64,000 bases of DNA from Candidatus Thalassarchaeum betae (GCF_022448665.1 NZ_JAKUUO010000004.1); one strand, 5' to 3'; counted from the first letter of the stretch, positions 1 to 17,611 are shown. Notes: generated by a model not told the origin, from the sequence alone. Program-made: numbers and translations.

Positions 1-1
1 G

Positions 2-2539
2 GGTGAGTGGGTAGTCACAATCGACGCCTTCGAGACCTCTCCGGGCGTCGAGGAGATCCTGCGTGACTTGATTTCCGTTTCAGCGGACACCGCTTCAGAA
101 GATCTGGTTTTCTCTACGGGCGAGGTCGCTAGATTCTCGATCACGCTCTACGAGGACTACTCGGAGGGGGCGATGGAAGGAATTTCACTAGACCTTGTCT
201 CAGGAGACGGGCTCGGTTTGGTCCACCTCGACTCGACCGACTCCTCAGGCCAGATCCCTATCAGAGTGGCCCCTGGCGCCTGGAACGTTGAGTTCAATCT
301 CACTGAAGACCGAGTGCGTTGGACGGTCGAATCCACGAACGAGTCAGCTTTCGAACTTGTTGCCGGCGACAACCCCGATGTCAACGTAACTGCCTCCAAA
401 TTTATTGAGACAGGCTCTAACGTGTTCTGGGACTTCGATGATGACAACCGTTCGGATGTGGGTGAAGGAGTCTCTAATGTTACTATTCACCTCAGTTCGG
501 AAGATAGCGACCTAACCACAGTTACCAACCTAACCACAGTTACCAACAATAATGGTGATTGGAGGGCCTTTGTCCCTGCAGGAAGCTTTTGGGAGTTGCA
601 TACTGAAATCGCAGGATTCGCCGATCAGCATAACCTATTGCAGATGGTCATTGACCCCGCTTGGACCGATATTGAACTAACTGCGGGAGAGGTAGAGGTC
701 AAAGGCAATGTCTCATACATCAATGAACAGCAATTCTCGCTAATCAGTGACTCTATTATTCTGAAGCTTCTCCCGGTTAGTGGCTTCGAGCGTGATACAA
801 TTGTTCCCGACAAGATTCTGATTAATGGCTCTTGGACGGGGGGATGGGAAGCACAGATTGAACCCGGTAATTGGGTTCTAAGAGTGACCTCAGTGGAAAA
901 CAACCTGGTTGCCATGGCCTTAGTGGAAGCAGGTGTTGTCGAAGGAGCGGAGATTGATGTCGAATTGAAAGTTGGTGGGTGGCTGAATCTCCCAACATCA
1001 TGGATAGACTACGAAGGAGATGAGCACACATTAGCGGTTCTGGAAACCGAAAACGCAGAGATAATCAATTCTCCCGACCCAATAATCAACATAGGGGCCG
1101 GGATGAGTTGGAATTCTTCGGTCGATGAGGAGGGCAATCTTAGGATACTACTACCGAGCGGAAGAATTGACGTATCGTGTACGGCACTGATTGTCCAGCG
1201 GAATCTCACCATGGAGTACGAAGGCGAGCAAGGAGTGGATATTCGTGTCAACCAAGAAACTCCTCCCACAACGCTGAATCTCATTAGGGAGGCGAGTCAA
1301 TACATCATCAGTTACATGATCAATAATTCTCAATGGAATGAATCCGAGGATTTTGATGTTGACATTACTACTTCCCTTCCAACTGACAATGGTGGCTATG
1401 AAGCAGTGTACTATCACTTGGGCGTGCAGTACGATGGACACGAAACATTCCAGACATATACTGCCTACCCGTTACTTGAGGGAGGAACCGCCGGCCTGCC
1501 CCTCAATGAAGGCGACGGTGGTTGGACGGTCGAACTCCACAACGGCTCGGGAATCTGGGGCGAGGAGACCAATATCTCGATGGGCTTGGATTCAATAACC
1601 AACTTCACCGAATTGCACGTCCGCATAATACCCCCAAATCAGAGTGTTGCCCACTATATAGAAGGGGGTGGACAGGTCACGATTTTCTTCAAGGATAACC
1701 CAGTTACATATTTCCACAATTACCACGACATCCGTGTCAACATCCCACAATTACACGGTTTCGAACTTACCGAACCGATGGCTGAGACTTATGGAATTTA
1801 TCCGGGAACCTCTTCTGGAATTGGAGTGAAACTCACTAATTCCGGCAATGGAGATGAGATGTTCACCTTCGAGTTCGACGACTCGGAGTTGCCCGATTAT
1901 TGGGAGAGGACTGGACCCATCACGCATACGCTGGGAGCTTTTGTCCAGACAACACACACTGTGACGATCAGGGCACCTGCAAACGCCAGTGATGAGGATT
2001 TCAAGATTTACGTGACCGTCCGTGACAGCGCTAACAACACCTACTCGGATGTCGAGATACACATTCAGACCTCTCGACCCGTACTGAGTATCGATTTCCA
2101 TCAGCTCTATGGCGGCGGAATAGATTTGGTCTCCGGGCAGACAGCGCTGTACTACGTGAATGTCACGAACTCGGGGCTAATCGATGCCATAATGGTGCAG
2201 TTGAACGGGACGCTGTGCAGTGACGTCAACTGCAATTCGGCGCTCCCCGTGAAGGGGACAGATATCGGGGACATAGCCGCGTCCTCTACGGTAACCTTCG
2301 AGATATTACTCGACCTGTCGGATATCGATCCGGCCACGTACTACGTGCAGTTCGAAATCAATGCGACAGGATTCGACTCCGTCGAGGAATACGACTCTCA
2401 GCAGGTCAAGGTCCGCTCGGCTCCGATCGAGGAGACGACGGACTGGATCACTTGGCTGCTGGGTGGCCTGCTGGTGGTGGCTCTGCTGCTGTTGACTAGG
2501 AGCGGCGGCGGAAGGCGAAGGTCGAGCGCCCCCTTCTGA
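2..2539 (+). CDS. Large secreted/surface protein, 5'-partial. Single C-terminal TM helix plus short Arg-rich tail (..WITWLLGGLLVVALLLLTRSGGGRRRSSAPF). Many N-x-S/T sequons.
   Basis: The frame of ORF 68..2539 stays open back to nt 2, so the gene continues beyond the window. GC3-rich codons. A C-terminal hydrophobic stretch is followed by a basic tail. About 20 N-x-[ST] sequons suggest a heavily N-glycosylated ectodomain. No recognisable catalytic motif. Confidence 0.6.
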   Translation, partial: GEWVVTIDAFETSPGVEEILRDLISVSADTASEDLVFSTGEVARFSITLYEDYSEGAMEGISLDLVSGDGLGLVHLDSTDSSGQIPIRVAPGAWNVEFNLTEDRVRWTVESTNESAFELVAGDNPDVNVTASKFIETGSNVFWDFDDDNRSDVGEGVSNVTIHLSSEDSDLTTVTNLTTVTNNNGDWRAFVPAGSFWELHTEIAGFADQHNLLQMVIDPAWTDIELTAGEVEVKGNVSYINEQQFSLISDSIILKLLPVSGFERDTIVPDKILINGSWTGGWEAQIEPGNWVLRVTSVENNLVAMALVEAGVVEGAEIDVELKVGGWLNLPTSWIDYEGDEHTLAVLETENAEIINSPDPIINIGAGMSWNSSVDEEGNLRILLPSGRIDVSCTALIVQRNLTMEYEGEQGVDIRVNQETPPTTLNLIREASQYIISYMINNSQWNESEDFDVDITTSLPTDNGGYEAVYYHLGVQYDGHETFQTYTAYPLLEGGTAGLPLNEGDGGWTVELHNGSGIWGEETNISMGLDSITNFTELHVRIIPPNQSVAHYIEGGGQVTIFFKDNPVTYFHNYHDIRVNIPQLHGFELTEPMAETYGIYPGTSSGIGVKLTNSGNGDEMFTFEFDDSELPDYWERTGPITHTLGAFVQTTHTVTIRAPANASDEDFKIYVTVRDSANNTYSDVEIHIQTSRPVLSIDFHQLYGGGIDLVSGQTALYYVNVTNSGLIDAIMVQLNGTLCSDVNCNSALPVKGTDIGDIAASSTVTFEILLDLSDIDPATYYVQFEINATGFDSVEEYDSQQVKVRSAPIEETTDWITWLLGGLLVVALLLLTRSGGGRRRSSAPF
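511..546 (+). repeat. Perfect in-frame 18-bp tandem duplication (cctaaccacagttaccaa x2) encoding LTTVTN-LTTVTN inside the first surface-protein gene
   Basis: Direct reading: 511..528 and 529..546 are identical. Confidence 0.9.
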
Positions 2540-2604: not shown

Positions 2605-3843
2605 ATGCAGCCCAAGGACAACCTCGAACTGCTGCCCGAGCCAGAAGAGCCGAGGATGCTGACCACAATCGACTCCGACGCTCCCGGATACCCGGGCGAG
2701 GCCTACGGCATCACAGATGAGGAGGCCAAGGAACTCAGATGGCCTGCGACCCCGCTAAGGAAGATTCTGTGGCCTTGGGGTGCGATTACCTTCGCTGTAG
2801 GGACCGTCTTCCTCCTAGTCGTGATGCCGTACATCAATGCCTATCTGGCTCCTGTTCTGCCTGAGTCCGAATGGGCCTACGAGTCCACAGGGATCAGGGA
2901 ACTGCAAGACTCAGGACTCACCGGTGAAGGGGTCCATGTCTGCATTGTGGACACAGGCATCGACCTCGAACATCCCGATTTCGAGAACCTCAGCCTCGCC
3001 GGGTTCCGTGACTTCTACGAGGGCCAGCACGATGACATCAGGGACATCGGGGAGGAGTTCCACGGTACTATGATGGCCGGTCTGCTGGTAGCCGACGGCA
3101 AGTACTACGGTGCAGCCCCAGGGGTCGACCTATCGATCGCCCTGGCACTCAGTCCTGCTGGTACCTCCGGCCAGGAGGACAGGGTCGCACAGGCGATCAG
3201 ATGGTGCAGGATCACCCAGGGGGCCGACATAATCAGTCTGAGCCTAGGCAGCGACCCCGGCAGCGGGATGGGCATTCAGTCCGAGACCGTCATGGCCGTC
3301 CAAGAGGCGTTGGACGCTGGCATCTTCGTGGTCGCCGCAGCGGGAAACACAGGTGATGACGACAGCATCGGGGACGTTTCTACGCCAGCGAACCTCGAGG
3401 GGGTCATCGCAGTGGGCGCATCGAGCAGGAACGGGAACGCCTGGTCAGCCAGCGCCGAGGGATCGCTCCTAGACCCCTACACAGGGGAGAACAGGTCCTA
3501 CCCCAATCAGAAGCCGGAGGTCTCCGCCCCCGGCGTCCTTCTGTTCTCCACAGCCTCGACTGAGATATCCCCTCCCTACGCCTACTCCTCCGGGACCAGT
3601 GACTCCACTGTACTGGTCACCGGGGCCCTCGCGCTGATCTTGGAACTGCACGGCGAGGCACTGGCTGGAGACGACGGGACCTTCGATTCAACCGAGATGG
3701 CCATCGTGAAGAGAGCCCTCGCGAGTTCCTGCGACAAACAAGCCATCGGAGGGAGTCCGCATGACCCCAATGGCGGCTATGGGCTTCTGGATGCCGTTCA
3801 GTGGGCATCTGAAATAGCATTCGAACTCAATCTGGACGTTTAG
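2605..3843 (+). CDS. Subtilisin-like serine peptidase (S8 family) with an N-terminal signal-anchor TM helix
   Basis: Catalytic-triad motifs read in order: Asp HVCIVDTGID, His HGTMMAGLL, Ser GTSDSTVLVTGA. A hydrophobic segment WPWGAITFAVGTVFLLVVMPYI sits near the N-terminus. Confidence 0.8.
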   Translation: MQPKDNLELLPEPEEPRMLTTIDSDAPGYPGEAYGITDEEAKELRWPATPLRKILWPWGAITFAVGTVFLLVVMPYINAYLAPVLPESEWAYESTGIRELQDSGLTGEGVHVCIVDTGIDLEHPDFENLSLAGFRDFYEGQHDDIRDIGEEFHGTMMAGLLVADGKYYGAAPGVDLSIALALSPAGTSGQEDRVAQAIRWCRITQGADIISLSLGSDPGSGMGIQSETVMAVQEALDAGIFVVAAAGNTGDDDSIGDVSTPANLEGVIAVGASSRNGNAWSASAEGSLLDPYTGENRSYPNQKPEVSAPGVLLFSTASTEISPPYAYSSGTSDSTVLVTGALALILELHGEALAGDDGTFDSTEMAIVKRALASSCDKQAIGGSPHDPNGGYGLLDAVQWASEIAFELNLDV

Positions 3844-3927
3844 AAGCGTCAATTGTGCTTCACTGCCTTGCAATCAAAGACTTCTCCTCATTTTTCCTAA
3901 TGCGAGCCTACGGCTCGATACTACCCT

Positions 3928-6900
3928 ATGATTAAATCCGTTCCCGATTCCCCACGACGCATGCCTCGCAGTCAGAGAAGGCGCAGTCACTTCATCGTCA
4001 TGCTGATGCTGACGAGCCTGTTCGTCGCTCTCGTTGGTCCGGCAGCCCCGGTCTCAGCCAACAACGAGACGACCTCAGGGACCATCTCCGGCACCGAGAC
4101 CTGGTGGGGCAACCACGACCTGACCGGCGACGTCGTGATAGCATCCGGGGCCAAGCTTATCATCCAGCCTGGAACGAATGTCAACTTCCCCAACGGCACT
4201 CACCTCGATGTCCGCGGCAACCTGTGTGCTGGGGTCATGAACTGCGGAGCCGCAGGCAATGCCAACACCGCGCAGAGGATCAACTTCCACTGGAACGACC
4301 CTGCAAACAGCAGCGCCACCGGCGAGTGCTATGGCATGAGCCATGGGAACCAGGAGATCTTTGTGAGGGACCCCTCCTGCTACGAAGGCGTACTGATCCG
4401 CAACTCAATCGACCTGTCCGAGAGTGGATTCAGGTACATCAGGATCGACGGGGCGTGGGGAATACCCATGTACATTCAGTCAGTCTACGAATGGCGCTAC
4501 GGCGCACTGGTCATCGATGGTGCCAGCCCCACATTGACCGAGATCGAGTTCACTGACATCAACACTACCAGCCTGCTGACCACGAACCTCGCTCAGCCCC
4601 GGCTCGTCGGCGGCGAGTACACGGTCGGAACCGACGACGAGAGCGATGTGAGGGGCTCGGCGGTGCAGATCTACAGTTCGGGCACTCCGGTTACGCCGTT
4701 GATACTCGAGTCGCCGAACTTCATCGGGACCAACGTCGGCTGTGGCCGATGGGACCCGAGCCGACCAGTGCTCTGGGCCGAGGACACTTTCATCGAGGTT
4801 GACGGTGCGACCGCTGTCGGTGACTACGGCCTGAGCCTGCGTCACTCCTCGGGCAGTATCACAAACTCGGAGCTGAACGTCAACTGCAATGGGATAGACA
4901 TCAACAGCAGGAAGTCTGTCGGTAACGTGGATTACTCCATCGATGTAATCTCCAATGAGATCACAACTGCTGACGGCTCCCCCATCACCGTCTTCGACGG
5001 CGGTCTTGTTCGCATCGCGGACAATGACCTCCAAGGCGCGGACGAAGCTTCGGGGATATCGATTGAGTCGAGCGAGGTACAGGTCCTCAACAACGACATC
5101 GGCCCGATTGGCGGCTGGAACGGGCTGTGGATGCTCGGCTCATTCGACGTGGTGGCCGAGAACAACACCATCCACGACACTGCTAGGGAGCCTATACGTG
5201 CAGGAGAGTACGGCTCCCAATCACCAAACCCCCAGGCAGCGCGAGTCTATCTGGCCAACAACTCGATCACCTCTGACGGGACGGGCTCCTGTCAGGCCAC
5301 CAAGTACGATGACTGGGGTGGTGACTTCACCTGCCCTGCGGTCCACGCTTACAGGACCGGAGTCTCGATGTTCGACAACACCATCAACATCCCCGACACC
5401 GGTGACGCCGACGGAATCAGGGCCGTGGGCGCGCTTCTGGACATCCAGCGGAACACCTTCAACATACCAGGCACAGGTGCAATCGTCACGAACTACGACG
5501 ACGGCTATGCAGGCTCACAGCAGTACGGCACCCTCGCCTTCTTCTCACAGAACTCATGGGCGGGAGTCGGGATGACGTACAACGTCACCAAGAGCTCGAT
5601 TACAGTGCAGTCGGAGTACATCCCGAGCCCGCCTCCTGGCGAGTACCCGGTCCGGCTGCTCTGGTCCGATCAAGAGGCGTACCCTCCCAACGACTACCAG
5701 ACGAACATCCGTCCGACGTTCGTCAAAGACTGCGCCAACTGCGCCAACATGACCCCACGGGGGTTCCCGCTCGCCATTAACATGGACAACAACTCGACTA
5801 CCTTCACCTTCGCCAACCTGTCCAATCTCGACCGCAGCAAGATCTACATCGACACCACACCCTCGCCTCCGACGGTTCAGGTTCGTGTTGCCACGATGGT
5901 TCGCTTCCAGACTCTGGTCAATGGCGAACGGGTCGCTGGTGCTAATGTGCTGATCGAGGACGCACTGGGCAACGACATGTACTCCCTGTACACGAAAGGC
6001 GATGGCTACACACAGTGGTTCGCCCTACCATCGAACTTCCATCTCGACATCAGAGGCCTAGGGGGTGGCGACAACCCTAACCACTTCGCCATGGACGAGT
6101 ACGAGGACTCCTGTTCAGACGGGATCGATAACGACGGCGACCTGACGATTGACACCGCTGACGAAGACTGCGACACGCTATCTGGAACCCGGGAACTCTC
6201 TCGCTACTACTACACCGCCTACAGCTTCGGCTTCGGCTACGACCAGGGAGAATTCACCTTGACAGATACCACCCTGCAGGACACAATCAACCTCCTCAAC
6301 ATGGCCCCGACGGTCTTTGTCACGCAGTCTGACGGCCATTCCTACCGTAGAGTGGTCAACGTATCTGGCAGCGCCCATGACGGACAGCTGGCCGGAATCT
6401 ACGCCACCGACGAGTTGGCTCAGTGGGACCAAGGCGGCTACGTCCACGAAGTGCAGGTCAAAGACCCCTTCACGAGCGAGTGGAGCAATGCGGGACTGGC
6501 CGTGGACACCAGCGGAATGGACAGGGGACAGGTCACTAGGACAAACAGGCCGTTCAGCTCATGGTACTACGAGATCGACATGAGCCACCGGGAAGAGGGC
6601 GACTACGTCTTCGAGTTCAGGGCATTCGACGGTATTGACTACAGCCCGGTCATCTCCAAGATCATCAAACTCAACACCCAGCCCCCGACCATCACTGTGA
6701 CGTCCCCGAGCTCGTTCTCGACACACTCGGAGGGAACTGTGACCTTCGAGGGCACCGCTTTCGACTACTACGGCTGCCCAATACAGTGCAGCGTCGACAT
6801 CCAGGACATCTTCTTCCATATCGAAGGCCCCGATTTCGACATCACCACCCCTGCCGAAGGAGGCCCTGATTGGAGTTGGACTTGGGACTTCAGCGGCCAG

Positions 6901-8310
6901 CCCCGCCAGAGCGCAACTTACACGTTCACAGTTTGGGCCTCGGACACCGACTTCTGCGAGAGCGTGGTCGACGAATGCGTTCCAGTGGTCCTAACTCTGA
7001 CCATCGACAACTCGAACAGCCCGCCGTTCATCAGCATCATCACCCCGCAGGACGGGCAGAGGCTCTCGGTCTCCGAGGGGACCGTGTTCGAGGGCGTCGC
7101 CCGCGACAACGACGGGGCTATCTCCAGGGTCGACATTGAAGTCCAGGACGTCGCAAACGGTTATCTCTTGGTGTACTCCAACTCGGTGTCCGATTTCGCC
7201 CCCAACGGCGCTTGGTCGCTGGAATGGGACTCCACGCATCTGATGCATGACCAGCAGTACCTGATGCGATTCCGGTCTTACGACGGCTACGACTACAGTG
7301 ATTGGTCCGAACTGTTCATCGTCGCTGACAATCCTCCTGATGCGGGCAACAGCCAGCCTACTTTCGACCAGACTGGCTGGAGCAGCGAGATCAACCTCTA
7401 TTGCGAGACTAACTCGCAGGCTCAGGATCGCTGTACTAGGGCTGAGATCAACCTGTTGGACTATTTCGAGGACCCTGACCCCGGACAGGAACTGATCCTG
7501 GCCGTTTACGATGATGAGGGGACCATTTCAGACGACCACTTCGGTATGGTGATCAACGTCGGCATGGACGGGATGGCGATCTACAACCCAGTATCGATGT
7601 TCTTCTACGACACCGACATGACCACGTGGACCCTAGAAAACGTCGTCTTCGTCGCTACAGACACGTACGGCTCGAAGATCAACTCCAACCCAATCACCTT
7701 CTCTGTCACAGGGATAGCGTTCGACATTTCACCTCCTGATGACACCTCGGTGCCCTCTAACGGAGTCGCGGTCTTCACCGGTGTCGGACTCCCTGGCAAG
7801 ACGGTCACCGTGACTATCGCTGGGAACAACGTCAACAACACCGTCGTGGGCGAGGATTCGTTCTGGTCACTGGGAATCCCGGCATCGAGGATAGACGGCT
7901 CGGCCACCCCGGTCTTCAAGTACGGTGGCGAGGACTTCCACGAGGACGACTTCGACAACGACGACTGGACCATCAGAGTGGGCGGCTCTGGCGGAGGCGG
8001 TATGGGGATGGGCACAATCCTACTCATTCTGTTGGTGGTGATTGCAGCCATTGGCGGATTCGTTTACTTCTTCGTCGAGCTGGAGGAGGACGAGGACGAG
8101 GAGCTCGATGGCACTTCTGAAGTCAAGGAGGAGGCCGAGTCCGAGGACGCCTACGCATGGGCCAAGGAGGCTTACGCGGAACCCGGCATTACAGAGGAGT
8201 CCCCTCCTGAACCCGAATCGAGGCTGCAGGAGCACGATGAGCACCCCGGATGGCTCTGGGACCCCGATAACGAGGAATGGGTGCCCGATTCGGACCACTC
8301 TGACGCGTGA
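3928..8310 (+). CDS. Giant (1460 aa) surface protein. Signal peptide with an RR motif, right-handed parallel beta-helix (PbH1-like) repeats, beta-sandwich-like repeats, one C-terminal TM helix and a roughly 90-aa acidic Trp-containing cytoplasmic tail.
   Basis: N-terminus MPRSQRRRSHFIVMLMLTSLFVALVGPAAPVSA. Repeated NN-[ST]-I / GxxxxNN beta-helix-like segments (e.g. NNDIGPIGGWNGLWMLGSFDVVAENNTIHDT). C-terminus GTILLILLVVIAAIGGFVYFFV followed by LEEDEDEEL...HPGWLWDPDNEEWVPDSDHSDA. Confidence 0.75.
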   Translation: MIKSVPDSPRRMPRSQRRRSHFIVMLMLTSLFVALVGPAAPVSANNETTSGTISGTETWWGNHDLTGDVVIASGAKLIIQPGTNVNFPNGTHLDVRGNLCAGVMNCGAAGNANTAQRINFHWNDPANSSATGECYGMSHGNQEIFVRDPSCYEGVLIRNSIDLSESGFRYIRIDGAWGIPMYIQSVYEWRYGALVIDGASPTLTEIEFTDINTTSLLTTNLAQPRLVGGEYTVGTDDESDVRGSAVQIYSSGTPVTPLILESPNFIGTNVGCGRWDPSRPVLWAEDTFIEVDGATAVGDYGLSLRHSSGSITNSELNVNCNGIDINSRKSVGNVDYSIDVISNEITTADGSPITVFDGGLVRIADNDLQGADEASGISIESSEVQVLNNDIGPIGGWNGLWMLGSFDVVAENNTIHDTAREPIRAGEYGSQSPNPQAARVYLANNSITSDGTGSCQATKYDDWGGDFTCPAVHAYRTGVSMFDNTINIPDTGDADGIRAVGALLDIQRNTFNIPGTGAIVTNYDDGYAGSQQYGTLAFFSQNSWAGVGMTYNVTKSSITVQSEYIPSPPPGEYPVRLLWSDQEAYPPNDYQTNIRPTFVKDCANCANMTPRGFPLAINMDNNSTTFTFANLSNLDRSKIYIDTTPSPPTVQVRVATMVRFQTLVNGERVAGANVLIEDALGNDMYSLYTKGDGYTQWFALPSNFHLDIRGLGGGDNPNHFAMDEYEDSCSDGIDNDGDLTIDTADEDCDTLSGTRELSRYYYTAYSFGFGYDQGEFTLTDTTLQDTINLLNMAPTVFVTQSDGHSYRRVVNVSGSAHDGQLAGIYATDELAQWDQGGYVHEVQVKDPFTSEWSNAGLAVDTSGMDRGQVTRTNRPFSSWYYEIDMSHREEGDYVFEFRAFDGIDYSPVISKIIKLNTQPPTITVTSPSSFSTHSEGTVTFEGTAFDYYGCPIQCSVDIQDIFFHIEGPDFDITTPAEGGPDWSWTWDFSGQPRQSATYTFTVWASDTDFCESVVDECVPVVLTLTIDNSNSPPFISIITPQDGQRLSVSEGTVFEGVARDNDGAISRVDIEVQDVANGYLLVYSNSVSDFAPNGAWSLEWDSTHLMHDQQYLMRFRSYDGYDYSDWSELFIVADNPPDAGNSQPTFDQTGWSSEINLYCETNSQAQDRCTRAEINLLDYFEDPDPGQELILAVYDDEGTISDDHFGMVINVGMDGMAIYNPVSMFFYDTDMTTWTLENVVFVATDTYGSKINSNPITFSVTGIAFDISPPDDTSVPSNGVAVFTGVGLPGKTVTVTIAGNNVNNTVVGEDSFWSLGIPASRIDGSATPVFKYGGEDFHEDDFDNDDWTIRVGGSGGGGMGMGTILLILLVVIAAIGGFVYFFVELEEDEDEELDGTSEVKEEAESEDAYAWAKEAYAEPGITEESPPEPESRLQEHDEHPGWLWDPDNEEWVPDSDHSDA

Positions 8311-8377
8311 ATCACGTTCCGCCCTCGTCTCGCTAACATTCTTGAGTGGACGATTGCGCTCACGGCACGTGACAAGC

Positions 8378-10897
8378 ATGGCCGTACCCCGTCCAGGGGT
8401 CCAAGAGCGGATTCTCCTGCACCTGCGCGATTACATCGATCATGCAGACAAGGTAGAGGTCCCATTCGCTTTGTCCCAGATGGGAATCGCCAACGCTGTG
8501 GCCATAGCCCGCTCCAATGTTCCTCGTGCAATAGCTGGGATGAGGGAGCAGGGGCACCTCATAGAGAGACAGGCTCACGTCACCGGGGTGTCGCGCAAGA
8601 GGAAGGCGTACTTCCTGACCGAGGATGGCGCCAACATTGCCAACGACATCTGGTCCAAGGTCAGTACCCAATCCGTCCGTCTGGTACATCCCGATGGCCG
8701 CTCCGAGACGTTAGAGCTCGCACAGGCTCTCGAGGCGACTGACCTGCCCCTGCGACACGTCGATTTCCTCAGGTACATCGACGACACTGGGACTGTCGAC
8801 CTCTCGACTCTCTCTGCTGAACTGATTGAGAGGGATCTGTCCAAGCACATCGAGAAGCAACTCGTCACCTCGCTGAACGACCTGCCGAAGACCCGCCGCT
8901 TTTTCGGCAGGGAGAACGAGTTGCAAAACATGGTCGCTCTTCTTGAGGACCAGTCGAGCTCCATACTGATACCGGGAATCGCCGGAATCGGGAAGACGGC
9001 TCTGGCCGGCAAGCTGGTTGAGCGCTTCACTCACAGGCGAAACCTGCTGTATCACCGATGCCAGGACTGGGAGGGCTCGAGGGCTTTCCTCGAAGCCATC
9101 TCGGAGTGGCTCTCCGCCATAGGTCACAATGACCTATCGGACTACCTTGCTGCCACTCCGGTGCCTCAGGCGTCGATGGCGGTAAATCTGATTTTCGAAG
9201 GCCTGCAGGACTCTCCTTCGCTGATTGTCATCGACGACCTGCACAAGGTCGGTGACGAGACTCTGATTTCTGCTCTGAGATCCCTCACACTAAAGGTACC
9301 AGAGCTCGATGACGTGGGTCTAGTGATGTTCTCACGCTCATTCAGGATGGTCGTCCCCGAATCGGACTCGTCAGGCCGAATAGTGACGCTAGTCATGCCT
9401 CTGGAGGGTCTAGACCAGGAGTCCAGCAGACAGATTCTGACTGCCATGCCCAATCTAGAGATGGCTCAGTTCCTACACATCTACACTCTGTCCAGAGGAC
9501 ACCCCCTGGTACTGGAACTCATCAATCGAGGAAACGTAGGAGAGACCTTCCACGCGACGCTAGAGGCTTTCGTCGAGCAGGAGATCTTCAGTAGGCTCTC
9601 TGGCTCCGAGAAGAGACTGCTCGGAGCCATCGCTGTGTTCCGCGAACCGATGCCACTGGAGGCTATCATCGGGATCGAGGCTGAGACGGACCTTCTCGAC
9701 AGCCTCGTTGAGAAGGGCCTTGCACGTCAGGCTGACAGTGAGAACTATGACGTCCACGACCTAGTCAGGGAGTTCCTAACCAGATCCATGGACGAGTCGT
9801 TGCGCCAAGAGCTCCATGCCAACGCAACAGTCTGGTACCGATCCAGACACGGCATTGCTGCAGAGAGGATAGAATACATCCATCACCTCAACGAATCCGG
9901 AGACACAGACAGTCTCGCTGAGGTACTCACCGCCGAAGGCCACGGTCTCGTCAGCGCAGGGCACACCGAGCTGCTGGGAATTCTGAGGCCGCTCGAGCGC
10001 GAGGGATTCGGACCCAGAAGCTGGTGCGTAATCAGGGAACTGCGAGGGGATATCCTGTCCATACAGGGACAATGGGACGAGGCCGAGGCCGAGTACAACG
10101 CGGCTGTACCGCTCGCCAGCAAGCACAAGATGAACAGGGTACTCGCCCGCTTGCTGTCAGCTAGGGCCGACATTGCCGTCAAGCGCGGGGCGATGGACGA
10201 TGCCCTTGAGATGCACCGCAAGGCGTTGGAGATCCAGATTGCCTTGAGAGACGCCGTGGGCGCTGCCCGCTCCTACAACAACATGGGCTACATCTACCGA
10301 CGCAGGAAGGACAACCGACATGCGCTCGAGGTGTATGGCAACGTCGAGGACCTACTTGAGGCTGAGGACAACCTCGAGTTGTGCGATGCGCGCATCCGCC
10401 TCGCATCCGCATTCTTGGAGATGGGAGAGCTCGATCGAGCCAGAGACCATGCGATGCTCGCTTTTGAGGAAACTGAGGACAATGGCATGGATATCTACCA
10501 CGCACGCGCCCGAGCGGTCTTGGGGAGTTACTATGCCCGATCGAAGGAGAACGAACTTGCGATGCAGTACTACTCTGGAGCGCTTGAGATACTTTCGGAG
10601 CAAGCAGATCCGAACAGTGCCGTCGAACTTGAGATGCTGCTGGGGCAGGTACTGAGCGACGCCGGTCGCAAGGATGAGGCTGCAGAACACTACCTAGACG
10701 GCCTCGCCCTGGCCGAGGCCAACGACTTCAGGATGCTCCAAGGGGAACTTCTCGCACGCTTAGGGGAGGTCGAGAGTGACCGCTCACAGAAGATGGAGTA
10801 CCTACAGCGCTCGCTATCCGTGTTCAGAGAACTCGGCGCGGTCGACAGGATGCGAGAGGTCCAGACCTCAGTCCACATAGCGGTCATGGGGCACTAG
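8378..10897 (+). CDS. Signal-transduction ATPase. N-terminal winged-helix HTH, then Arch_ATPase/STAND-type P-loop NTPase, then C-terminal TPR repeats.
   Basis: ATG at 8378 is in frame with ORF 8042..10897. The upstream part of that ORF overlaps the preceding gene, so it is rejected. HTH-like segment ERILLHLRDYIDH..FALSQMGIANAVAIARSNVPRAIAGMREQGHLIE. FFGRENELQNMVALLED followed by Walker A ILIPGIAGIGKTALAGKLV, and Walker B SLIVIDDLHKV. C-terminal TPR-like repeats (ARSYNNMGYIYRRRKDNRHALEVY.., HARARAVLGSYYARSKENELAMQYY). Confidence 0.7.
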   Translation: MAVPRPGVQERILLHLRDYIDHADKVEVPFALSQMGIANAVAIARSNVPRAIAGMREQGHLIERQAHVTGVSRKRKAYFLTEDGANIANDIWSKVSTQSVRLVHPDGRSETLELAQALEATDLPLRHVDFLRYIDDTGTVDLSTLSAELIERDLSKHIEKQLVTSLNDLPKTRRFFGRENELQNMVALLEDQSSSILIPGIAGIGKTALAGKLVERFTHRRNLLYHRCQDWEGSRAFLEAISEWLSAIGHNDLSDYLAATPVPQASMAVNLIFEGLQDSPSLIVIDDLHKVGDETLISALRSLTLKVPELDDVGLVMFSRSFRMVVPESDSSGRIVTLVMPLEGLDQESSRQILTAMPNLEMAQFLHIYTLSRGHPLVLELINRGNVGETFHATLEAFVEQEIFSRLSGSEKRLLGAIAVFREPMPLEAIIGIEAETDLLDSLVEKGLARQADSENYDVHDLVREFLTRSMDESLRQELHANATVWYRSRHGIAAERIEYIHHLNESGDTDSLAEVLTAEGHGLVSAGHTELLGILRPLEREGFGPRSWCVIRELRGDILSIQGQWDEAEAEYNAAVPLASKHKMNRVLARLLSARADIAVKRGAMDDALEMHRKALEIQIALRDAVGAARSYNNMGYIYRRRKDNRHALEVYGNVEDLLEAEDNLELCDARIRLASAFLEMGELDRARDHAMLAFEETEDNGMDIYHARARAVLGSYYARSKENELAMQYYSGALEILSEQADPNSAVELEMLLGQVLSDAGRKDEAAEHYLDGLALAEANDFRMLQGELLARLGEVESDRSQKMEYLQRSLSVFRELGAVDRMREVQTSVHIAVMGH

Positions 10898-11703
10898 GCT
10901 GCCTTACCCACTCCCTCAGGCTCCACTTGGCCCAGCCAGTGGCTGAATTCGGGGCCGTCCTGTTTCGAGATTGAAAGGTCACCTGAGAAACGCTCGTCGA
11001 TGTGCAGAAGCACCTCGCTCTCAGCCAGATGTGGGGCGTTGTTCTTCTCAGACAGGTGACAGAGCACGATGCTGTCCATTCCCGGGTGTAGGATCTCGGT
11101 CAGCATCTCAGCAGTCTGTGAGTTCGACAGGTGACCCCCTCTGCCGGAGATTCTCCTCTTGAGCGAGTCTGGGTAAGGCCCGTTCATCAGACGCTGGAGG
11201 TCGTGGTTCGCCTCGACGGAGACGTGGCTGCATCCGCTGAGATGCTTCTTCAACTCAACTGTTGGCTCGCCGAGATCGGTCACGATTCCGGCTCTGCGCC
11301 CGTCTCCGTTGGTGGCGATAACAGCAACGTTGGCAGCACCCTCGTGCGGGACCGGTATCGGAAGCAGACTGAGCTCGTCGGAGACGCTAATCCTGTCCAA
11401 GTCCCCGAAGGTCCTGCACTCGGAGACAGGCTCCCACCCCATCTTCGTCGCCGTCTGGAGATTGGCGTGCAGAGCCGAGTCCCACTTCTTCGCGGCCTGC
11501 AACGCGGAGCGCGAGTGGTCGGAGTGGTGATGAGTGACGAAAATGGCGTCTATCAAAGCCGGCTTGACTCCCGCTAGTCCCAATCTGACCTCCATCTGGC
11601 GCAGCGAGAATCCGCAATCCACCAGAACCAGGGTGCCACCCGATCTCAGTAGCGTGGAGTTGCCTCTGCTGCCCGAGCCTAGATGGGTAATCTCCATTCC
11701 CAC
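10894..11703 (-). CDS. Metallo-beta-lactamase-fold hydrolase
   Basis: N-terminus MGMEITHLGSGSRGNSTLL..LVLVDCGFS. Metal-binding motif FVTHHHSDHS (HxHxDH). Converges on the STAND gene with a 4-nt tail-to-tail overlap. Confidence 0.75.
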   Translation of the reverse strand: MGMEITHLGSGSRGNSTLLRSGGTLVLVDCGFSLRQMEVRLGLAGVKPALIDAIFVTHHHSDHSRSALQAAKKWDSALHANLQTATKMGWEPVSECRTFGDLDRISVSDELSLLPIPVPHEGAANVAVIATNGDGRRAGIVTDLGEPTVELKKHLSGCSHVSVEANHDLQRLMNGPYPDSLKRRISGRGGHLSNSQTAEMLTEILHPGMDSIVLCHLSEKNNAPHLAESEVLLHIDERFSGDLSISKQDGPEFSHWLGQVEPEGVGKAA

Positions 11704-11890
11704 GACAATCGAGACTATCCGGCCATCTGCCCCCCTTGAATGAATCCGTTAAGCAGATTCTGCTACCGCGATTTGGGTCTCTCGACGGCTACGCCGTCGC
11801 GCGTGAAGGGCCTCGACGTGTCCGAACGGCGCTCCATCATCATCATAAGTCAGCCAAGGGCGCTCAAATCCGTCTAGACGAGGTCATATC

Positions 11891-14800
11891 ATGCGTCGCA
11901 AGCAGACAGCGCTACTCATGACGATACTGCTCCTGGGCAGTTTGGCTTTCGTCTCGCAGACTCGCCCTCAGTCATCCGTCTCCTCGACCGATCCGATTAC
12001 AGCAGACAGAGGGGGCCCTCCCGTGACCGATGAGGACGGCGACAGGATACCCGATCTGCACGAGTCGATATTCGGAGATGTCAGGTTGATTGATACCAGC
12101 ACAGGTGTGGTCAGCGTCAGGGGATTGGATCCAACTAATGGGACAGACAACATGTCCGATTACGACAGCGACGGCGCCAGTGCCCTCCTCGAGTTTTGCT
12201 GGCCATACACGCTGGATCGGTGTTTCGACAGACTCTCGCTTACCGGTAAGCCGCCCCAATTCACTGATTCCGGCCTTCGGGAGTATCTCGACCCCCGGAA
12301 TGCCGACACCGACGGCGACGGACTGCCCGACGGTTATGAGATTTACATGTGCACTGAAGGGGGTTTGGGCTATCAGAACGCATCCAATGCATGGCAGTGC
12401 TTGTGGTTCGATCCTCTCGACGCCTCTGACTCGACAGAGGACATCGACCGCTGTGAGGACTTCAGTTTCGGTTGCGGTGACGGCTTCGATGTCAACCGTG
12501 ACGGTTTCATCGACATAGGTGAGCGTTACACGAATTCGGAGGAGTACCTCTACGGCATTCCGGAAGACTGGCTGACCGAGAGGGACGGACTGTGGTGTGC
12601 AGGGGAGATTGCGGGACTCAGCCCCGATTCATGTCAGGGTGATATCGAGAGAGCTACCGGGGACAACGGCTGGCTCGGAAGCGACCCTACTGAGCCGGAC
12701 TCGGACTACTACACTTGGTCGGAGGTGATTGCTATCGGACTCGCCGTTCCCGGAGATGGGATACCTGACGGCTGGGAGGTTCACTACGGCTTGGACCCAC
12801 GGAACTCCAGTGATGCCATAGAGGACACCGACATGGATGGATGGGACCTCGACAGAGACGGCTTCCTGATTCCTGACATCTCCACCTCGACCGCCCACTG
12901 GGGCGAGGCATTCAGCAACTACGAGGAGTACATGGTACACTTCGACGACGGTGCTTGGGTCACTCCCGGACTAAGGGGCGCCCCTTCCTCGCAATCCGAT
13001 GGAGAGGTGATTTCATTCGACCAGAGCACGAGCCCCGGGCTCGTAGATGGAGCAGTCCATACCGTACTGTCCGACTCTGCGAGAGACAGGCTGCTAATCG
13101 GCTCAAGATACGGAATCACCGTCATCGACCCATTCGAGGGCACATCATCGCTGTACCAGCTGCCATCGGGAATGGAGATGCACACCATGATGCGGTGGTC
13201 TCCGAGTGACTCCGACTTCCTGCTTGTCGGCTCCAATCTAGGGTTGCACTGCATCACTCTCGACAACGGACTTCCTGTGATGGAATCAATGTCCGAGTCG
13301 GACATAGGGCCCATTGAGGACATCTACGCCCTGCAGACGGGCAGCGGCGACCTCGATCTGATTTTGTTCGGCAAGGGCTTTGCCACTTGGACAGTCACGG
13401 TGAGGGACCAGGGAGAGGACCAGGACGCTATGGTGGGCGAGCCCGAGTACAACGATGAGATGGCCGACACGCTGTCAGCCGCCGACGCCGAGATCAACAC
13501 GGCCTTGCATGTTCAGATGGATGGCCGAGGCCCACTGCTACTGGTCGGGACCGATGCCGGACTCGTCGCTTGGAATACCACCGACGGCTCGGCCTCCGCC
13601 GGCGACCCATGGTGGGTCTTCGACCGTGAGAACGCAGAGGACTTCGTTCAGCGTGCCGACCTGCTGAACGTCTCTAAGTCCGCCGTAGTCAACGCGCTAG
13701 TCCTCGCTGGCCCCTTGGATGCTGCAGGGGGCGTAGAGGAGGTTACCGGCATCTGGGTCGGCACCGCTGGTGGACTGCACCTGCTAGACCTCGATCTCCT
13801 GATTCAGATGCCATACTCGGCATTCGACTCCGACAGGATGTACAATATCGAGAGGTGGGCAGAAGGGGCCAATGATATCCGCTCAGTACTGCCGATGAAC
13901 GACATGGTAGTCATCGGTTCCAGAGACGGGTCATGGTGCCTCGAGGGCGGCCATTCGGGTGTCCTCGGTTTGTATCTCAACCAGACTAAGATACCCGGGC
14001 TGATAACATCCCTGACCACTCTGGAGCACGGCGGGAACCTGTGGATATTCGCAGGCGTCTCGCCGGGCCGTTACATGAATATCATGCCAATCGACCCGAC
14101 ATCCTTTGATTCGGACCTCGACGGAATGCCCGACGGCTGGGAGTTCGTCTATGGACTCGATCCAACCGACCCCCACGACCGCTACCGCGACGCCGACGCC
14201 GACGGAGTCCACTTCACCTCCGCTGACGGCTTCGAGTTCGACAGGGACTGGACCAACTTGGATGAGTATAGATACGTATCTACCACTGATAACGGCTTCA
14301 ACGGAACCGACCCGAGAGACATAGACTCGGACGGCGATGGACTCACCGATGGCGAGGAGTACTGGGGCTGGTTCGCCGACTCTACCGAATTCGACTGTCA
14401 CTACCTCAATGACGAGTATATCTGTGACGAAGACACCGGCGCACTGGCAGAACAGGTCCACCTGGAAGGGTGGCTGGGCTCAGGCGCGGGCGGAGGAACC
14501 GATGGCCCCACTGACCCGACCAACCCAGATACCGACGGTGACGGGATGCCTGATGGCTGGGAGATGGAGCATCGCAGGTGGGTAGGCGATGCTTACAACG
14601 GCGGCAACCTCTGGACCCTGGACCCGAGGGATCCTACGGACAGGGACGAGGATGCCGACGGCGACGGGCTCAGCAATCTGTGCGAGTACATGTGGGGGAA
14701 CCTGCTCGAAACGGTACTGCGCGAGGGTCTGCCGACGCATGGGGAGACGGCCGAGGCTGCAATCAATTGGACCAAGACTGATCCCAACGAAATCGATTCT

Positions 14801-17611
14801 GACGGCGACTCCCTGCCCGACGGCTGGGAGGCCCGTTACACCTGCACGTGGAACAAGGACAACTCGGGAATCAACCCGTTGAACGGCTCTGACTACCTCA
14901 ACAACCCCGACGGCGACGGATTCGACGTCAACCACGATGGAGTACTCGACCTAGAGGAGAGTCTGGTCAACTGGCTTGAGTACCACCTAAAGTCCGAGAT
15001 TCTGTATGGCGACCAGACCGCCTCGGGCATGGCGTTCCCAGAGAACTTCACCACTCTGCTGTGGAATGAGACCTGGCTCAACTTCGCAGACGATTCGTTT
15101 GGCCACTTCACCAGCCCTGCTTACCGCAGCCTGGTTAACGGAACCACTCCGCGAGATGTCGGTTCCGCCAATCCATTGAGCGCTGACTCCGATCGCGACG
15201 GTATGCCGGACGGATGGGAGTTTTTCTACGCAAGATGGAGCCTGTTCGACGAGCAGTGGACGCTCAACCCCGTTGACGAGAGGGATCGACTCGGAGACCC
15301 CGACGGCGACGGGATGAACAACTGGGAGGAGTACAACGTCATCGATGGGAACCTCAGCGAGACCGACGAGCTGATTACCGTACCGCAGTTCTACCTCCTC
15401 AGAGTCGGCGGCGAAATACTCGCTTCGCCATGGCTCTCTGCCGAATCCGCTTCCTCATTCGGCATGTTCCTGTCTGACGAGCAAGTCAACAAGAGCGGGA
15501 GGACCGCCGATCCAAACAACCCCGACACCGATGGCGATGGTCTGCTCGACGGCATCGAACTGATATTCACACGTTGGAACTCGACGGACGAGGTCTGGAC
15601 ACTCAACCCCCTTGTCGCGGGTGATGGGAACTACGACTCGGACCGCGACGGCATCACCGACCTCGTCGAACTCAATCTGACTCATAACAACCCGGCCAAC
15701 GGCGGGCTATCACCGCCCGACGCGCCGCGTATGTGGGAGGAGGCTGAGCAGCTTGATCCCGATGAGGCCGTGAACAGAGTCTACAGAATCCTGTTCAACA
15801 AGGAGGGCAGGGCTGAACTCGCCATTGCGCAGTTCCAGGAGTGGCAGCAAGGCATGCCCGCCAAACCGGTTATCTCAGCGCTGCTAGGGGCCGCGGATCC
15901 GAATGCTGAGGACACCGACAGGGACGGTATGAGCGACGGCTACGAATACTGGTTCACAGAGTGGGACCTCGAGGAGAATATCTGGGAGATGAACCTCCTG
16001 ACCGACAGTGACATCCACGCGGACGCGGACGACGACTCTTTCGACTGCAATGGCGACGGCCACATCTCCGATTCCGAGTCCTATGACAACCTCGCCGAGT
16101 ATGACGCTAGAGTCTACGGCAAGCGTTCCGCCATCGACACCATCCCCAACGGCACAGGCCTGGTATCCTACGGCGCCGACGCGGTCACCGCGCAGATTGA
16201 CGAGAACGGGATGTCGTACGAGGCCGCCTTCGGACAGTTGTACGTCATGTTCTCCACCAAGAGCCTGGTCTCAGCAGAGCGCGCCGGCCTGATCAACGAG
16301 ATTGACCCTGACACATTCAACTACAGCTTAGCCGGAGTAAGTGACCCGACAGACGATGACTCGGACAGGGACGGGATGCCTGATGGCTGGGAGTTCTGCT
16401 ATTCCATCTACGGCGAGTTCCTCCCCGTCAACGCGTACCGCTGGTCGATGAACCCAATCAACCCCCTCGACATCGCTTACGATCCCGACGCCGACGGCTG
16501 GTATGACAGGACCTGGGGGGATGCCCCGGCCGAGCAGGGTACTTGGGAGGACAGGCAGTTCACACCTGCGCCGGTGGACCAGCAGATCGGACAGGGCTTC
16601 ATCGGTCTGTACTTCAGCAACCTGATGGAGTATGATAACGGCACGCATCCTCTTGACCCCGACACCGATGACGATTCTATGGTGATGGAACCGATTATGC
16701 AGAATGGCGCCGTCATCGACTATGTCCAGAACACCAATCTGTCGGACGGCCGTGAGGTGTTCAAGTACGGCACCAACCCGCTCGACAACGACACTGACGG
16801 CGACATGATGCCCGACTTCTATGAGTACTACAGGGGATGGAACGAGGCCAATGACAATTGGTCGTCCTATCTCAGAATCTCAGTGGTGTGGCAGCAGATT
16901 ACCGCGACCAACTTGAAGCCGGTCAACATCTCAGGCGCCAACATAGCAAGGCCCGACTTGGACTGGGTTTGGTTCACTCATGATGCGACCGACCCGTCCG
17001 ATGCCGGCCAAGACGCCGACAACGATGGCGGTTGGGACTGCTCCAGCGGCAACTGCGTCTATGTCCCGTACAACAATTTCCAGGAGTACTACGGCCTTGT
17101 CAACGCCTCCCTCGCCTCCCCAACACTGGTCAGGCAGGCAAACCTCTACGATTGCTCGGGCAACATCGTCCAAGAATGGTGGCAACTGCGCGAGTCCCTG
17201 CTGGGTACTTGCTCGGGCAGTGCGGCACTCGCGTCCAACTACTTCCGCATGTACAGGGTGAACAACGCCGACATGCTCTATGCCCTGATTGTGAAAGACA
17301 ACGATGATCACTATGAGGACATCGACACCAGTGACGACGAAGTCATGGTGAACGGCGCTTGGGCCGACGAGTACCACAGATTCGCCGGCGATCAGTACCA
17401 TTTGCCGAACACTGGCTTGGGTGAGTACGTCTACGGATGGTGGATAATCGACATCGACGGCGATCAGATTGCCGATGGCACCGATCCGACCAACTGGGAT
17501 ACCGACGGCGACTGGCTGAACGACTTCTTTGAGATCGAGGATGACATGCTCGATGGCGTCCGTGGTAACAGCGGCTCTCCCATCAGGTATGACGACCGGA
17601 CAACGTCGTGA
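11891..17611 (+). CDS. Giant (1906 aa) secreted calcium-binding protein with about 18 thrombospondin type-3-like repeats (DxDxDGxxDxxE). Sec-type signal peptide, no C-terminal TM.
   Basis: Signal peptide MRRKQTALLMTILLLGSLAFVSQT. Repeats read directly: DPRNADTDGDGLPDGYE, DPTNPDTDGDGMPDGWE, DPNNPDTDGDGLLDGIE, DDDSDRDGMPDGWE, NDTDGDMMPDFYE, WDTDGDWLNDFFE and others. The C-terminus IRYDDRTTS is not hydrophobic. Confidence 0.75.
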   Translation: MRRKQTALLMTILLLGSLAFVSQTRPQSSVSSTDPITADRGGPPVTDEDGDRIPDLHESIFGDVRLIDTSTGVVSVRGLDPTNGTDNMSDYDSDGASALLEFCWPYTLDRCFDRLSLTGKPPQFTDSGLREYLDPRNADTDGDGLPDGYEIYMCTEGGLGYQNASNAWQCLWFDPLDASDSTEDIDRCEDFSFGCGDGFDVNRDGFIDIGERYTNSEEYLYGIPEDWLTERDGLWCAGEIAGLSPDSCQGDIERATGDNGWLGSDPTEPDSDYYTWSEVIAIGLAVPGDGIPDGWEVHYGLDPRNSSDAIEDTDMDGWDLDRDGFLIPDISTSTAHWGEAFSNYEEYMVHFDDGAWVTPGLRGAPSSQSDGEVISFDQSTSPGLVDGAVHTVLSDSARDRLLIGSRYGITVIDPFEGTSSLYQLPSGMEMHTMMRWSPSDSDFLLVGSNLGLHCITLDNGLPVMESMSESDIGPIEDIYALQTGSGDLDLILFGKGFATWTVTVRDQGEDQDAMVGEPEYNDEMADTLSAADAEINTALHVQMDGRGPLLLVGTDAGLVAWNTTDGSASAGDPWWVFDRENAEDFVQRADLLNVSKSAVVNALVLAGPLDAAGGVEEVTGIWVGTAGGLHLLDLDLLIQMPYSAFDSDRMYNIERWAEGANDIRSVLPMNDMVVIGSRDGSWCLEGGHSGVLGLYLNQTKIPGLITSLTTLEHGGNLWIFAGVSPGRYMNIMPIDPTSFDSDLDGMPDGWEFVYGLDPTDPHDRYRDADADGVHFTSADGFEFDRDWTNLDEYRYVSTTDNGFNGTDPRDIDSDGDGLTDGEEYWGWFADSTEFDCHYLNDEYICDEDTGALAEQVHLEGWLGSGAGGGTDGPTDPTNPDTDGDGMPDGWEMEHRRWVGDAYNGGNLWTLDPRDPTDRDEDADGDGLSNLCEYMWGNLLETVLREGLPTHGETAEAAINWTKTDPNEIDSDGDSLPDGWEARYTCTWNKDNSGINPLNGSDYLNNPDGDGFDVNHDGVLDLEESLVNWLEYHLKSEILYGDQTASGMAFPENFTTLLWNETWLNFADDSFGHFTSPAYRSLVNGTTPRDVGSANPLSADSDRDGMPDGWEFFYARWSLFDEQWTLNPVDERDRLGDPDGDGMNNWEEYNVIDGNLSETDELITVPQFYLLRVGGEILASPWLSAESASSFGMFLSDEQVNKSGRTADPNNPDTDGDGLLDGIELIFTRWNSTDEVWTLNPLVAGDGNYDSDRDGITDLVELNLTHNNPANGGLSPPDAPRMWEEAEQLDPDEAVNRVYRILFNKEGRAELAIAQFQEWQQGMPAKPVISALLGAADPNAEDTDRDGMSDGYEYWFTEWDLEENIWEMNLLTDSDIHADADDDSFDCNGDGHISDSESYDNLAEYDARVYGKRSAIDTIPNGTGLVSYGADAVTAQIDENGMSYEAAFGQLYVMFSTKSLVSAERAGLINEIDPDTFNYSLAGVSDPTDDDSDRDGMPDGWEFCYSIYGEFLPVNAYRWSMNPINPLDIAYDPDADGWYDRTWGDAPAEQGTWEDRQFTPAPVDQQIGQGFIGLYFSNLMEYDNGTHPLDPDTDDDSMVMEPIMQNGAVIDYVQNTNLSDGREVFKYGTNPLDNDTDGDMMPDFYEYYRGWNEANDNWSSYLRISVVWQQITATNLKPVNISGANIARPDLDWVWFTHDATDPSDAGQDADNDGGWDCSSGNCVYVPYNNFQEYYGLVNASLASPTLVRQANLYDCSGNIVQEWWQLRESLLGTCSGSAALASNYFRMYRVNNADMLYALIVKDNDDHYEDIDTSDDEVMVNGAWADEYHRFAGDQYHLPNTGLGEYVYGWWIIDIDGDQIADGTDPTNWDTDGDWLNDFFEIEDDMLDGVRGNSGSPIRYDDRTTS

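Follow-up and report, generated by a model that had tools for sequence, protein, structure and literature searches.

A PH0952-type STAND protein in an order-wide surface-protein locus of Poseidoniales archaea, and its probable role as a regulator of that locus

The window analysed here is a 64-kb stretch of DNA (64,000 nucleotides, nt) from Candidatus Thalassarchaeum betae (GCF_022448665.1, NZ_JAKUUO010000004.1). At positions 8378-11703 it holds a gene for a STAND ATPase and, converging on it, a gene for a metallo-beta-lactamase (MBL)-fold hydrolase. Both genes sit between genes for two giant exported proteins, as was stated in a preliminary description of this DNA; these proteins, termed giant1 and giant2 here, are 1460 and 1906 amino acids (aa) long. 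The names of the closest protein relatives place the host in Candidatus Poseidoniales (Marine Group II), family Thalassarchaeaceae (MGIIb). Marine Group II ranks among the most abundant groups of planktonic archaea; to our knowledge its members have never been cultured, and their gene regulation is essentially unknown. Literature searches found no description of this surface-protein locus in Poseidoniales. The STAND protein is probably a regulator of the PH0952 type that is dedicated to the locus. The two genes, and the parts of the STAND protein, are as follows.

8378-10897, plus strand: STAND gene, ATG start, 839 aa; winged helix, middle domain, nucleotide-binding oligomerization domain (NOD), arm and TPR sensor
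8399-8662, plus strand: winged-helix domain, residues 8-95; helix H2, turn and recognition helix VPFALSQMGIANAVAIARSNVPRAI at nt 8459-8533
8663-8842, plus strand: middle domain, small alpha/beta, residues 96-155
8894-9802, plus strand: NOD, with nucleotide-binding domain (NBD), helical domain and winged-helix domain (WHD), residues 173-475
9803-10894, plus strand: arm (residues 476-545) and TPR sensor (residues 546-839)
10894-11703, minus strand: MBL-fold hydrolase, 269 aa; HHHSDH at residues 58-63

The motifs quoted for the STAND protein in the preliminary description were all located. A winged-helix-like N-terminus is followed by FFGRENEL (residues 175-182, nt 8900-8923), Walker A GIAGIGKTALAG (residues 200-211, nt 8975-9010), which contains GIAGIGKT with K206, Walker B LIVIDDL (residues 282-288, nt 9221-9241) and a TPR array. 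Further NOD motifs are the sensor-1 Arg320, GHPL at nt 9497-9508 and VHD (His460) at nt 9752-9760. The protein has the P-loop signature of the STAND superfamily (Walker A GxxxxGK[ST], Walker B hhhhDD), the STAND-specific NOD residues (sensor-1 Arg, GxP and an MHD-like WHD His) and a C-terminal repeat sensor. Two family alignments, of 30 and 36 members, show no variation at K206, D286, D287, R320, G374 and P376 (GHP motif); the WHD His460 is likewise constant in one of them, and in the other its conservation is at least 90%. From this motif conservation, the NTPase of the STAND protein looks functional.

Among Pfam models, AAA_16 matches with 36.2 bits (gathering cut-off 32.6) and TPR_12 with E = 9e-18; several more TPR models match across residues 553-808, the TPR_MalT match is weak, and a weak match to a Crp-like helix-turn-helix (HTH) covers residues 11-65. 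Arch_ATPase, also termed ATPase_2 (PF01637), reaches 25.0 bits in the window protein, under the Pfam threshold of 33.2, and weak or full matches to this model are on record for some orthologues and distant relatives. The earlier label of an Arch_ATPase, STAND-like protein therefore stands in its STAND part, on AAA_16 and the NOD motifs, and does not stand as an assignment to PF01637. A match to Orc1/Cdc6, at 19 bits against a cut-off of 181, was judged generic AAA+ similarity and rejected.

The AlphaFold2 model of the STAND protein, built on 36 sequences, has a mean predicted local distance difference test (pLDDT) score of 83. The TPR sensor is modelled as 15 helices (residues 546-837, about 7 repeats, pLDDT about 88-97). 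In a model of the N-terminal part, the middle domain has the secondary structure E-E-H-H-E-H (pLDDT about 85-94), and it is followed by a disordered linker at about residues 156-172 (pLDDT <50). The fold of the N-terminal domain resembles MarR, PadR and ArsR regulators. It is a winged helix and not an enzymatic effector, which agrees with the earlier view that this domain is of a DNA-binding type.

The closest relative of solved structure is PH0952 of Pyrococcus horikoshii, by sequence and by fold. A phmmer search of the PDB gives 6MFV (PH0952) as the best match (E = 2.3e-28, residues 169-474), and all other matches are to TPRs only. Foldseek against the PDB also gives 6mfv_A first, with E = 6e-21 over 684 columns and the next match at 6.6e-10; LGN TPRs, MalT (rank 3), Avs3, APAF1 and CED-4 follow at E about 1e-9 or weaker. 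The NOD superposes on those of PH0952, APAF1, CED-4 and MalT. PH0952 represents a clade of STAND ATPases and is a predicted transcription factor (Lisa et al., 2019; PMC6468293). The window protein shares with this clade the N-terminal ArsR/MarR-like winged helix.

Like the window protein, PH0952 is archaeal and has a winged helix, NOD, arm and TPR sensor in this order, and the same mechanism is expected of both, i.e. an ADP-bound resting form, double autoinhibition and multimerization upon induction. The two proteins are about 19% identical over the structural alignment. A possible difference is the middle domain of roughly 60 residues between winged helix and NOD of the window protein, the PH0952 crystal construct being without the N-terminus; in addition, the window protein occupies, as a conserved orthologue, a fixed place in the Poseidoniales surface-protein locus. 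That the closest relative is PH0952, with the same architecture, supports the preference for a regulator expressed in the preliminary description.

Two other groups of STAND regulators resemble the window protein in part. MalT of Escherichia coli (PDB 8BOB, 1HZ4), the activator of the maltose regulon, shares with it NOD, arm and TPR-like sensor, and multimerizes with ATP and inducer, after which it binds repeated promoter boxes. It differs in being bacterial, in its C-terminal LuxR-type HTH and in its ligand, maltotriose. The window protein has no C-terminal HTH and ends in TPR helices, and it scores 41 bits against a cut-off of 537 for the MalT equivalog NF003420. The large AfsR/SARP regulators of Streptomyces are pathway-specific activators of adjacent gene clusters, and have an N-terminal DNA-binding domain, a STAND NTPase and C-terminal TPRs. 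They differ by an OmpR-type winged helix and a BTAD; no Pfam match to BTAD or Trans_reg_C is found in the STAND protein, and the AfsR model NF053617 gives 38 bits against a cut-off of 1430, in the TPR region only. The SARP/MalT-like label used in the preliminary description is therefore imprecise.

The STAND protein has 771 database relatives, the best 120 of which are listed as full-length and are 74-97% identical; therefore the reading frame 8378-10897 is not a chance open reading frame (ORF). A HMMER scan with residues 1-480 against 1.84 billion cluster representatives gave 2267 matches, 393 of these at E < 1e-30. Most of the 150 representatives listed span query residues 8-480 at about 30% identity, and the arrangement of winged helix, middle domain and NOD is thus family-wide. 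The middle domain occurs across the family, though it is poorly conserved. Distant family members that are named belong to Thermoplasmatota.

A scan of genome contigs, one genome per GTDB species, with a 7-sequence alignment as query, yielded 306 confirmed relatives. The best 80 of these represent 80 different Poseidoniales species assemblies, and one orthologue was found in each. Identity to the window protein is 61-94% in Thalassarchaeaceae (MGIIb) and 57-60% in Poseidoniaceae (MGIIa). The STAND gene is a conserved order-wide orthologue rather than an accessory gene of patchy occurrence. In a comparison of 70 distinct Poseidoniales orthologues, conservation is highest in the winged helix, whose H2-turn-H3 segment is nearly invariant. 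Between MGIIa and the window, identity is 75% in the winged helix and 92% in its wing, compared with 53% overall, 38% in the middle domain and 32% in the arm. Since the winged helix is conserved most, the DNA target is predicted to be conserved across the order as well.

This distribution bears on the second possibility raised in the preliminary description, an Avs-like antiviral sensor. Avs1-4 and later families combine a STAND NTPase core with a C-terminal sensor of the repeat type and oligomerize on activation. The NTPase-plus-TPR architecture is thus held in common, Avs3 and Avs4 are among the weaker Foldseek matches (E = 1e-9 to 2e-6), and defence and non-defence STAND clades are interspersed (PMC13581612), which may also be counted in favour of an Avs-like protein. 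However, TM-scores to Avs proteins are 0.18-0.20, and PADLOC yields no more than a generic TPR match and a partial match of 19.7 bits. Avs proteins have killing effectors at the N-terminus, such as nucleases or proteases; they are sporadic and are found in defence islands. None of these properties is seen here: the N-terminus is a winged helix and no effector domain is present, the orthologue occupies a fixed position in each of the 80 genomes, and the remaining window genes are housekeeping genes, i.e. those for DnaJ, archaeosine synthase, the Glu/Gln- and Phe-tRNA synthetases, GAPDH, adenylate kinase and rRNA. A defence function is rejected on the lack of a meaningful PADLOC match, the lack of an effector, the non-sporadic spread and the housekeeping surroundings, and is considered extremely unlikely.

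The genes that flank the STAND-MBL pair, and three short blocks in the spacers between the genes, are the following.

1-2539, plus strand: AglB/STT3-fusion giant protein, C-terminal part, which runs off the 5' end of the window
2605-3843, plus strand: S8 subtilase, membrane-anchored; Peptidase_S8 E = 7e-38, transmembrane segment at residues 54-72
3928-8310, plus strand: giant1, directly 5' of the STAND gene; Big_7, with Beta_helix in orthologues
8335-8350, plus strand: TATA-like block AACATTCTTGAGTGGA, about 30-45 nt 5' of the STAND start codon
11733-11747, minus strand: block c.TTGAA...A.C, about 30-45 nt 5' of the MBL start codon
11819-11849, plus strand: 31-nt element TGTCCGAACGGCGCTCCATCATCATCATAAG in the MBL-giant2 spacer, about 40-70 nt 5' of the giant2 ATG
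11891-17611, plus strand: giant2; TSP3-like repeats, signal peptide

Giant1 and giant2 have N-terminal signal or anchor segments in a hydropathy scan, and giant1 has in addition a C-terminal transmembrane segment followed by an acidic cytoplasmic tail. Orthologues of the AglB/STT3 fusion are 2756-3257 aa in length and contain an STT3 domain (e.g. L002:1-4290); the fragment in the window ends in a transmembrane segment and then an RRRR anchor. The fusion combines an oligosaccharyltransferase with a very large extracellular region, and its C-terminal 823 aa in the window are dense in N-glycosylation sequons, with 2.6 per 100 aa.

Neighbouring genes were mapped by tblastn of the window's neighbour genes against all 85 loci, and statements on gene order hold for loci whose contigs extend far enough. 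The order AglB-fused giant (+), S8 (+), giant1 (+), STAND (+), MBL (-), giant2 (+) is constant in MGIIa and MGIIb. The giant proteins have diverged to 37-41% identity between the two families; the synteny is kept all the same. Every one of the 80 orthologous loci has surface-protein or peptidase neighbours where the contig reaches, an outcome that the preliminary description had named as favouring a regulator. Across loci, 11-105 nt separate the stop codon of giant1 from the start of the STAND gene. Several MGIIa genomes have a gap of only 11-21 nt, and in one deep MGIIb genome (L047) the two ORFs overlap, which points to co-transcription of giant1 and the STAND gene at least in MGIIa short-gap lineages and in L047. 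The TATA-like block 5' of the STAND gene is kept as AACATTATTGAGTGGA in MGIIb orthologous loci and may be a promoter.

Two layouts are found between the STAND and MBL genes. In the short layout, seen in the window and most MGIIb genomes, the two genes abut, with a spacing of -14 to +38 nt. In the long layout, seen in all MGIIa and in deep MGIIb, a segment of 3.6-4.1 kb lies between them and carries three minus-strand genes of about 155, 740 and 360 aa (L062:12516-16281; L047:12508-16282). The N-termini of their products resemble signal peptides of archaeal type IV pilins (DUF7289, Pilin_N), and the MBL gene is the first of the row. Neither the window nor most MGIIb genomes contain the three genes, and a search for pilin-like genes and for STAND paralogues elsewhere in the window found none. 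The long layout is likely ancestral. The 4-nt tail-to-tail overlap noted earlier is present in the window, where the STAND and MBL stop codons share the palindrome CTAG at 10894-10897. It derives from lineage-specific loss of the pilin-like genes and not from conserved coupling, so that the STAND-MBL link implied in the preliminary description is not upheld. The position of the MBL gene ties it to the pilin-like row and not to its STAND neighbour.

Long-layout lineages also have TGATAY arrays, 3-5 direct repeats about 20 nt apart, in the S8-giant1 spacer (L062:5403-5470; L054:5497-5574; L040:5394-5534). The same spacer in the window has a single CGATAC at 3916-3921. The arrays were considered as an operator and rejected, as they are confined to long-layout lineages and absent from the window.

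The MBL protein, with its HHHSDH motif as first described, matches Lactamase_B (E = 3e-14) and Lactamase_B_2 (E = 1.5e-11), both over the Pfam cut-off. It displays the HxHxDH motif of the metallo-beta-lactamase superfamily with the downstream His, Asp and His. The metal ligands H58, H60, D62, H63, H120, D143, H191 and H216 are invariant in 23 orthologues, and the segment RISGRGGHLSN is also conserved in MBL orthologues. No specific family model reaches its cut-off, and the protein is taken as a generic MBL-fold hydrolase, probably a phosphodiesterase. An RNase Z identity was rejected, the models scoring far under their cut-offs, as was an Apyc1 identity (PF23023, 15.1 bits against a cut-off of 50). 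The block at 11733-11747 is conserved order-wide in an alignment of the MBL-giant2 intergenic region and is likely a promoter element of the MBL gene.

This raises the question of whether the STAND and MBL proteins nevertheless form a functional pair, for instance one in which the signal sensed by the STAND protein is a nucleotide or small molecule that the MBL protein degrades. The two genes lie about 4 kb or less apart in every locus that reaches the MBL gene, their tails overlap in the window, and precomputed annotations list Apyc1-type Pfam matches for MBL orthologues. However, convergent genes have no shared transcript, and the pilin-like genes intervene in MGIIa and deep MGIIb. The MBL protein of the window itself falls well below the Apyc1 cut-off, and in a PDB profile search the MBL matches, Apyc1 included, cover only a generic N-terminal stretch of about 70 residues. 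In addition, no MBL gene is adjacent in eight distant STAND loci that were read; one of these, L090, has two MBL genes 1.4-5 kb upstream with another gene between. A functional pair is regarded as very unlikely.

The eight distant loci belong to relatives, 24-30% identical, from other Thermoplasmatota. In two of them the STAND homologue is divergent from an alpha-2-macroglobulin (A2M) gene of about 1480 aa, in one it is convergent with the gene for a 1098-aa filamin/cadherin-like protein, and in another it lies amid genes for PKD, TSP3, CARDB and SBBP proteins. Three are DUF835-STAND operons near a GT4 glycosyltransferase and a PAN ATPase; two of the three have PKD or SBBP genes within about 5 kb, and in L086 the sole surface-type gene is about 9.6 kb off. 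Overall, large surface-type genes (A2M, cadherin/filamin, PKD, SBBP) are adjacent or within about 5 kb in six of the eight loci, with L086 and L087 as the exceptions, and no defence gene is adjacent in any of the eight. In the three operons the DUF835 gene overlaps the start of the STAND homologue, which gives a conserved two-gene unit (L086:9342-12604, L088:9348-12622, L089:7339-10592).

The 31-nt element upstream of giant2 has the consensus tGTCCGAAC..CGCTCCATCA...T.ATAAG, also given as TGTCCGAAC..CGCTCCATCA...T.ATAAG. By regular expression it was recovered from 67 of 69 loci; a position-weight scan placed a single site in each of 73 loci, without exception in the MBL-giant2 spacer. The 64-kb window contains no other full match. 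Of 120 exact matches in a scan of metagenomes, 112 are upstream of giant2, and the remaining eight are chance matches inside ORFs of unrelated organisms. The element is nearly invariant across MGIIa and MGIIb, whereas giant2 is only about 41% identical between them. Within about 10 kb to each side of the STAND gene, no intergenic DNA is more conserved than that adjoining the gene itself. The 3' end of the element (ATAAG) is TATA-like, and its 5' two-thirds are at the usual position of archaeal activator sites. It could be an operator together with a TATA box, or an RNA element. On circumstantial grounds it is the best candidate operator to which the STAND protein may bind.

The regulator proposed here builds on the fold, family, intact NTPase motifs, conservation pattern, synteny and gene-specific cis element established above, which together make it probable, at somewhat better than even chance, that the STAND protein is of the PH0952 type and dedicated to the surface-protein locus. 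We infer DNA binding, a ligand, a direction of action (activation or repression) and target promoters for this protein. Judged from context, its likely targets are the genes of the order-wide locus, the pilin-like genes included in the layout that is likely ancestral; as the preliminary description suggested, the STAND protein may regulate the flanking giant and peptidase genes.

A mechanism may be sketched by analogy with PH0952 and MalT. At rest the protein would be a closed, ADP-bound monomer, kept inactive because its arm and TPR sensor contact the NBD. Ligand binding to the sensor would open the NOD, ADP would be exchanged for ATP in the opened NOD, and the ATP-bound protein would multimerize head to tail. 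The winged helices, clustered in this way, would bind promoter DNA and alter transcription. The best candidate site would be the 31-nt element, just 5' of the TATA-like box of giant2.

Several points weigh against a dedicated regulator. PH0952, the model for this STAND protein, is itself only a predicted transcription factor, and the fixed gene order within a single order could partly reflect inheritance. A search for a regulon by position-weight scan of 85 loci found no second site of the 31-nt element. The element is without obvious dyad or repeat symmetry, and could be a strong gene-specific promoter or the site of another factor. Among the distant loci, one (L087) has a tandem pair with mainly housekeeping neighbours, and the recurring surface-protein neighbours of distant homologues are suggestive as raw counts.

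Some of the same observations fit a STAND transcription factor whose regulon lies elsewhere in the genome and whose position is inherited gene order. The evidence from family and fold fits such a factor equally, the STAND gene has its own TATA-like block in MGIIb, and the neighbourhoods of distant homologues vary, one of them being mainly housekeeping. In addition, a multimeric factor would be expected to have a site with symmetry, and the 31-nt element, found once per locus, has none. Yet the synteny persists across MGIIa and MGIIb despite the divergence of the giants, the 11-21 nt giant1 gaps in several MGIIa genomes and the L047 overlap argue for co-transcription with giant1, and the most conserved intergenic DNA of the region adjoins the STAND gene. 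A regulon elsewhere is therefore thought unlikely, though its chance is appreciable.

The cytoplasmic tail of giant1 has two Trp-containing motifs, DAYAWAK at 8146-8166 and HPGWLWD....WVPD at 8245-8283. As (D/E)xYAWAK and HPGWLWD....WVPDP they are conserved in 59 distinct giant1 orthologues, and within the window they are confined to giant1. Their conservation suggests that a partner in the cytoplasm, itself conserved, binds them. Since short peptides are common ligands of TPR domains, the giant1 tail is a candidate ligand of the STAND sensor.

Perhaps the STAND protein serves in the cytoplasm as a scaffold for the biogenesis of surface proteins, or as a factor in their quality control, with the TPR array bound to the Trp-rich acidic giant1 tail. 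It would then act mainly through protein-protein contacts, with or without a transcriptional output. The tail motifs, conserved in a protein that is otherwise 37-41% identical between families and absent from other window proteins, are in keeping with such a role, as is the position of the STAND gene directly after giant1. However, the best-conserved part of the STAND protein is the winged helix, a canonical DNA-binding fold, and a scaffold is judged improbable.

The same tail could also be joined to the dedicated regulator in a feedback loop that acts on the cell envelope. The TPR sensor would read the giant1 tail (DxYAWAK ... HPGWLWD....WVPDP), availability of the tail would drive ATP-dependent oligomerization, and the oligomer would bind the 31-nt element and control giant2. 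Available tail would mean giant1 that is unexported, unassembled or cleaved. This more specific proposal is speculative and quite doubtful as a whole. If true, it would describe a STAND receptor that senses the tail of a self surface protein, and not a metabolite or a virus.

As a PH0952-type regulator, the protein would bring together, in one locus, an order-wide STAND factor and genes for giant surface proteins, peptidase, glycosylation and, as likely ancestral members, pilin-like proteins. The conserved gene-specific element makes the hypothesis of a regulator and its operator testable in vitro, without culture. The PH0952 clade would gain its first biological context. The protein is also another clear non-defence STAND, and a useful negative control when TPR-STANDs are annotated as Avs candidates.

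Other features of the window and of the loci scanned are of minor interest. The 64-kb window is archaeal and contains complete 23S and 5S rRNA genes at 48062-51147; a scan of the window for bacterial-type promoters and terminators was uninformative, the host being archaeal. No 16S gene adjoins the 23S/5S genes, and a citrate/arsenite-type transporter gene (46080-47450) is found upstream instead. A second giant S8 subtilase, of 1619 aa, is encoded at 39859-44718; it has CARDB and NEW3 domains and, beyond a transmembrane segment, a C-terminal tail rich in Trp. The ORF at 18178-19575 is a fusion of pyroglutamyl peptidase (C15) and NUDIX, the NUDIX part of which is called as a separate gene in some related genomes (L001). 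Finally, a contig titled 'Verrucomicrobiales bacterium' (L068, NZEQ01000036.1) holds a complete Poseidoniales locus and was probably assigned to the wrong genome bin.

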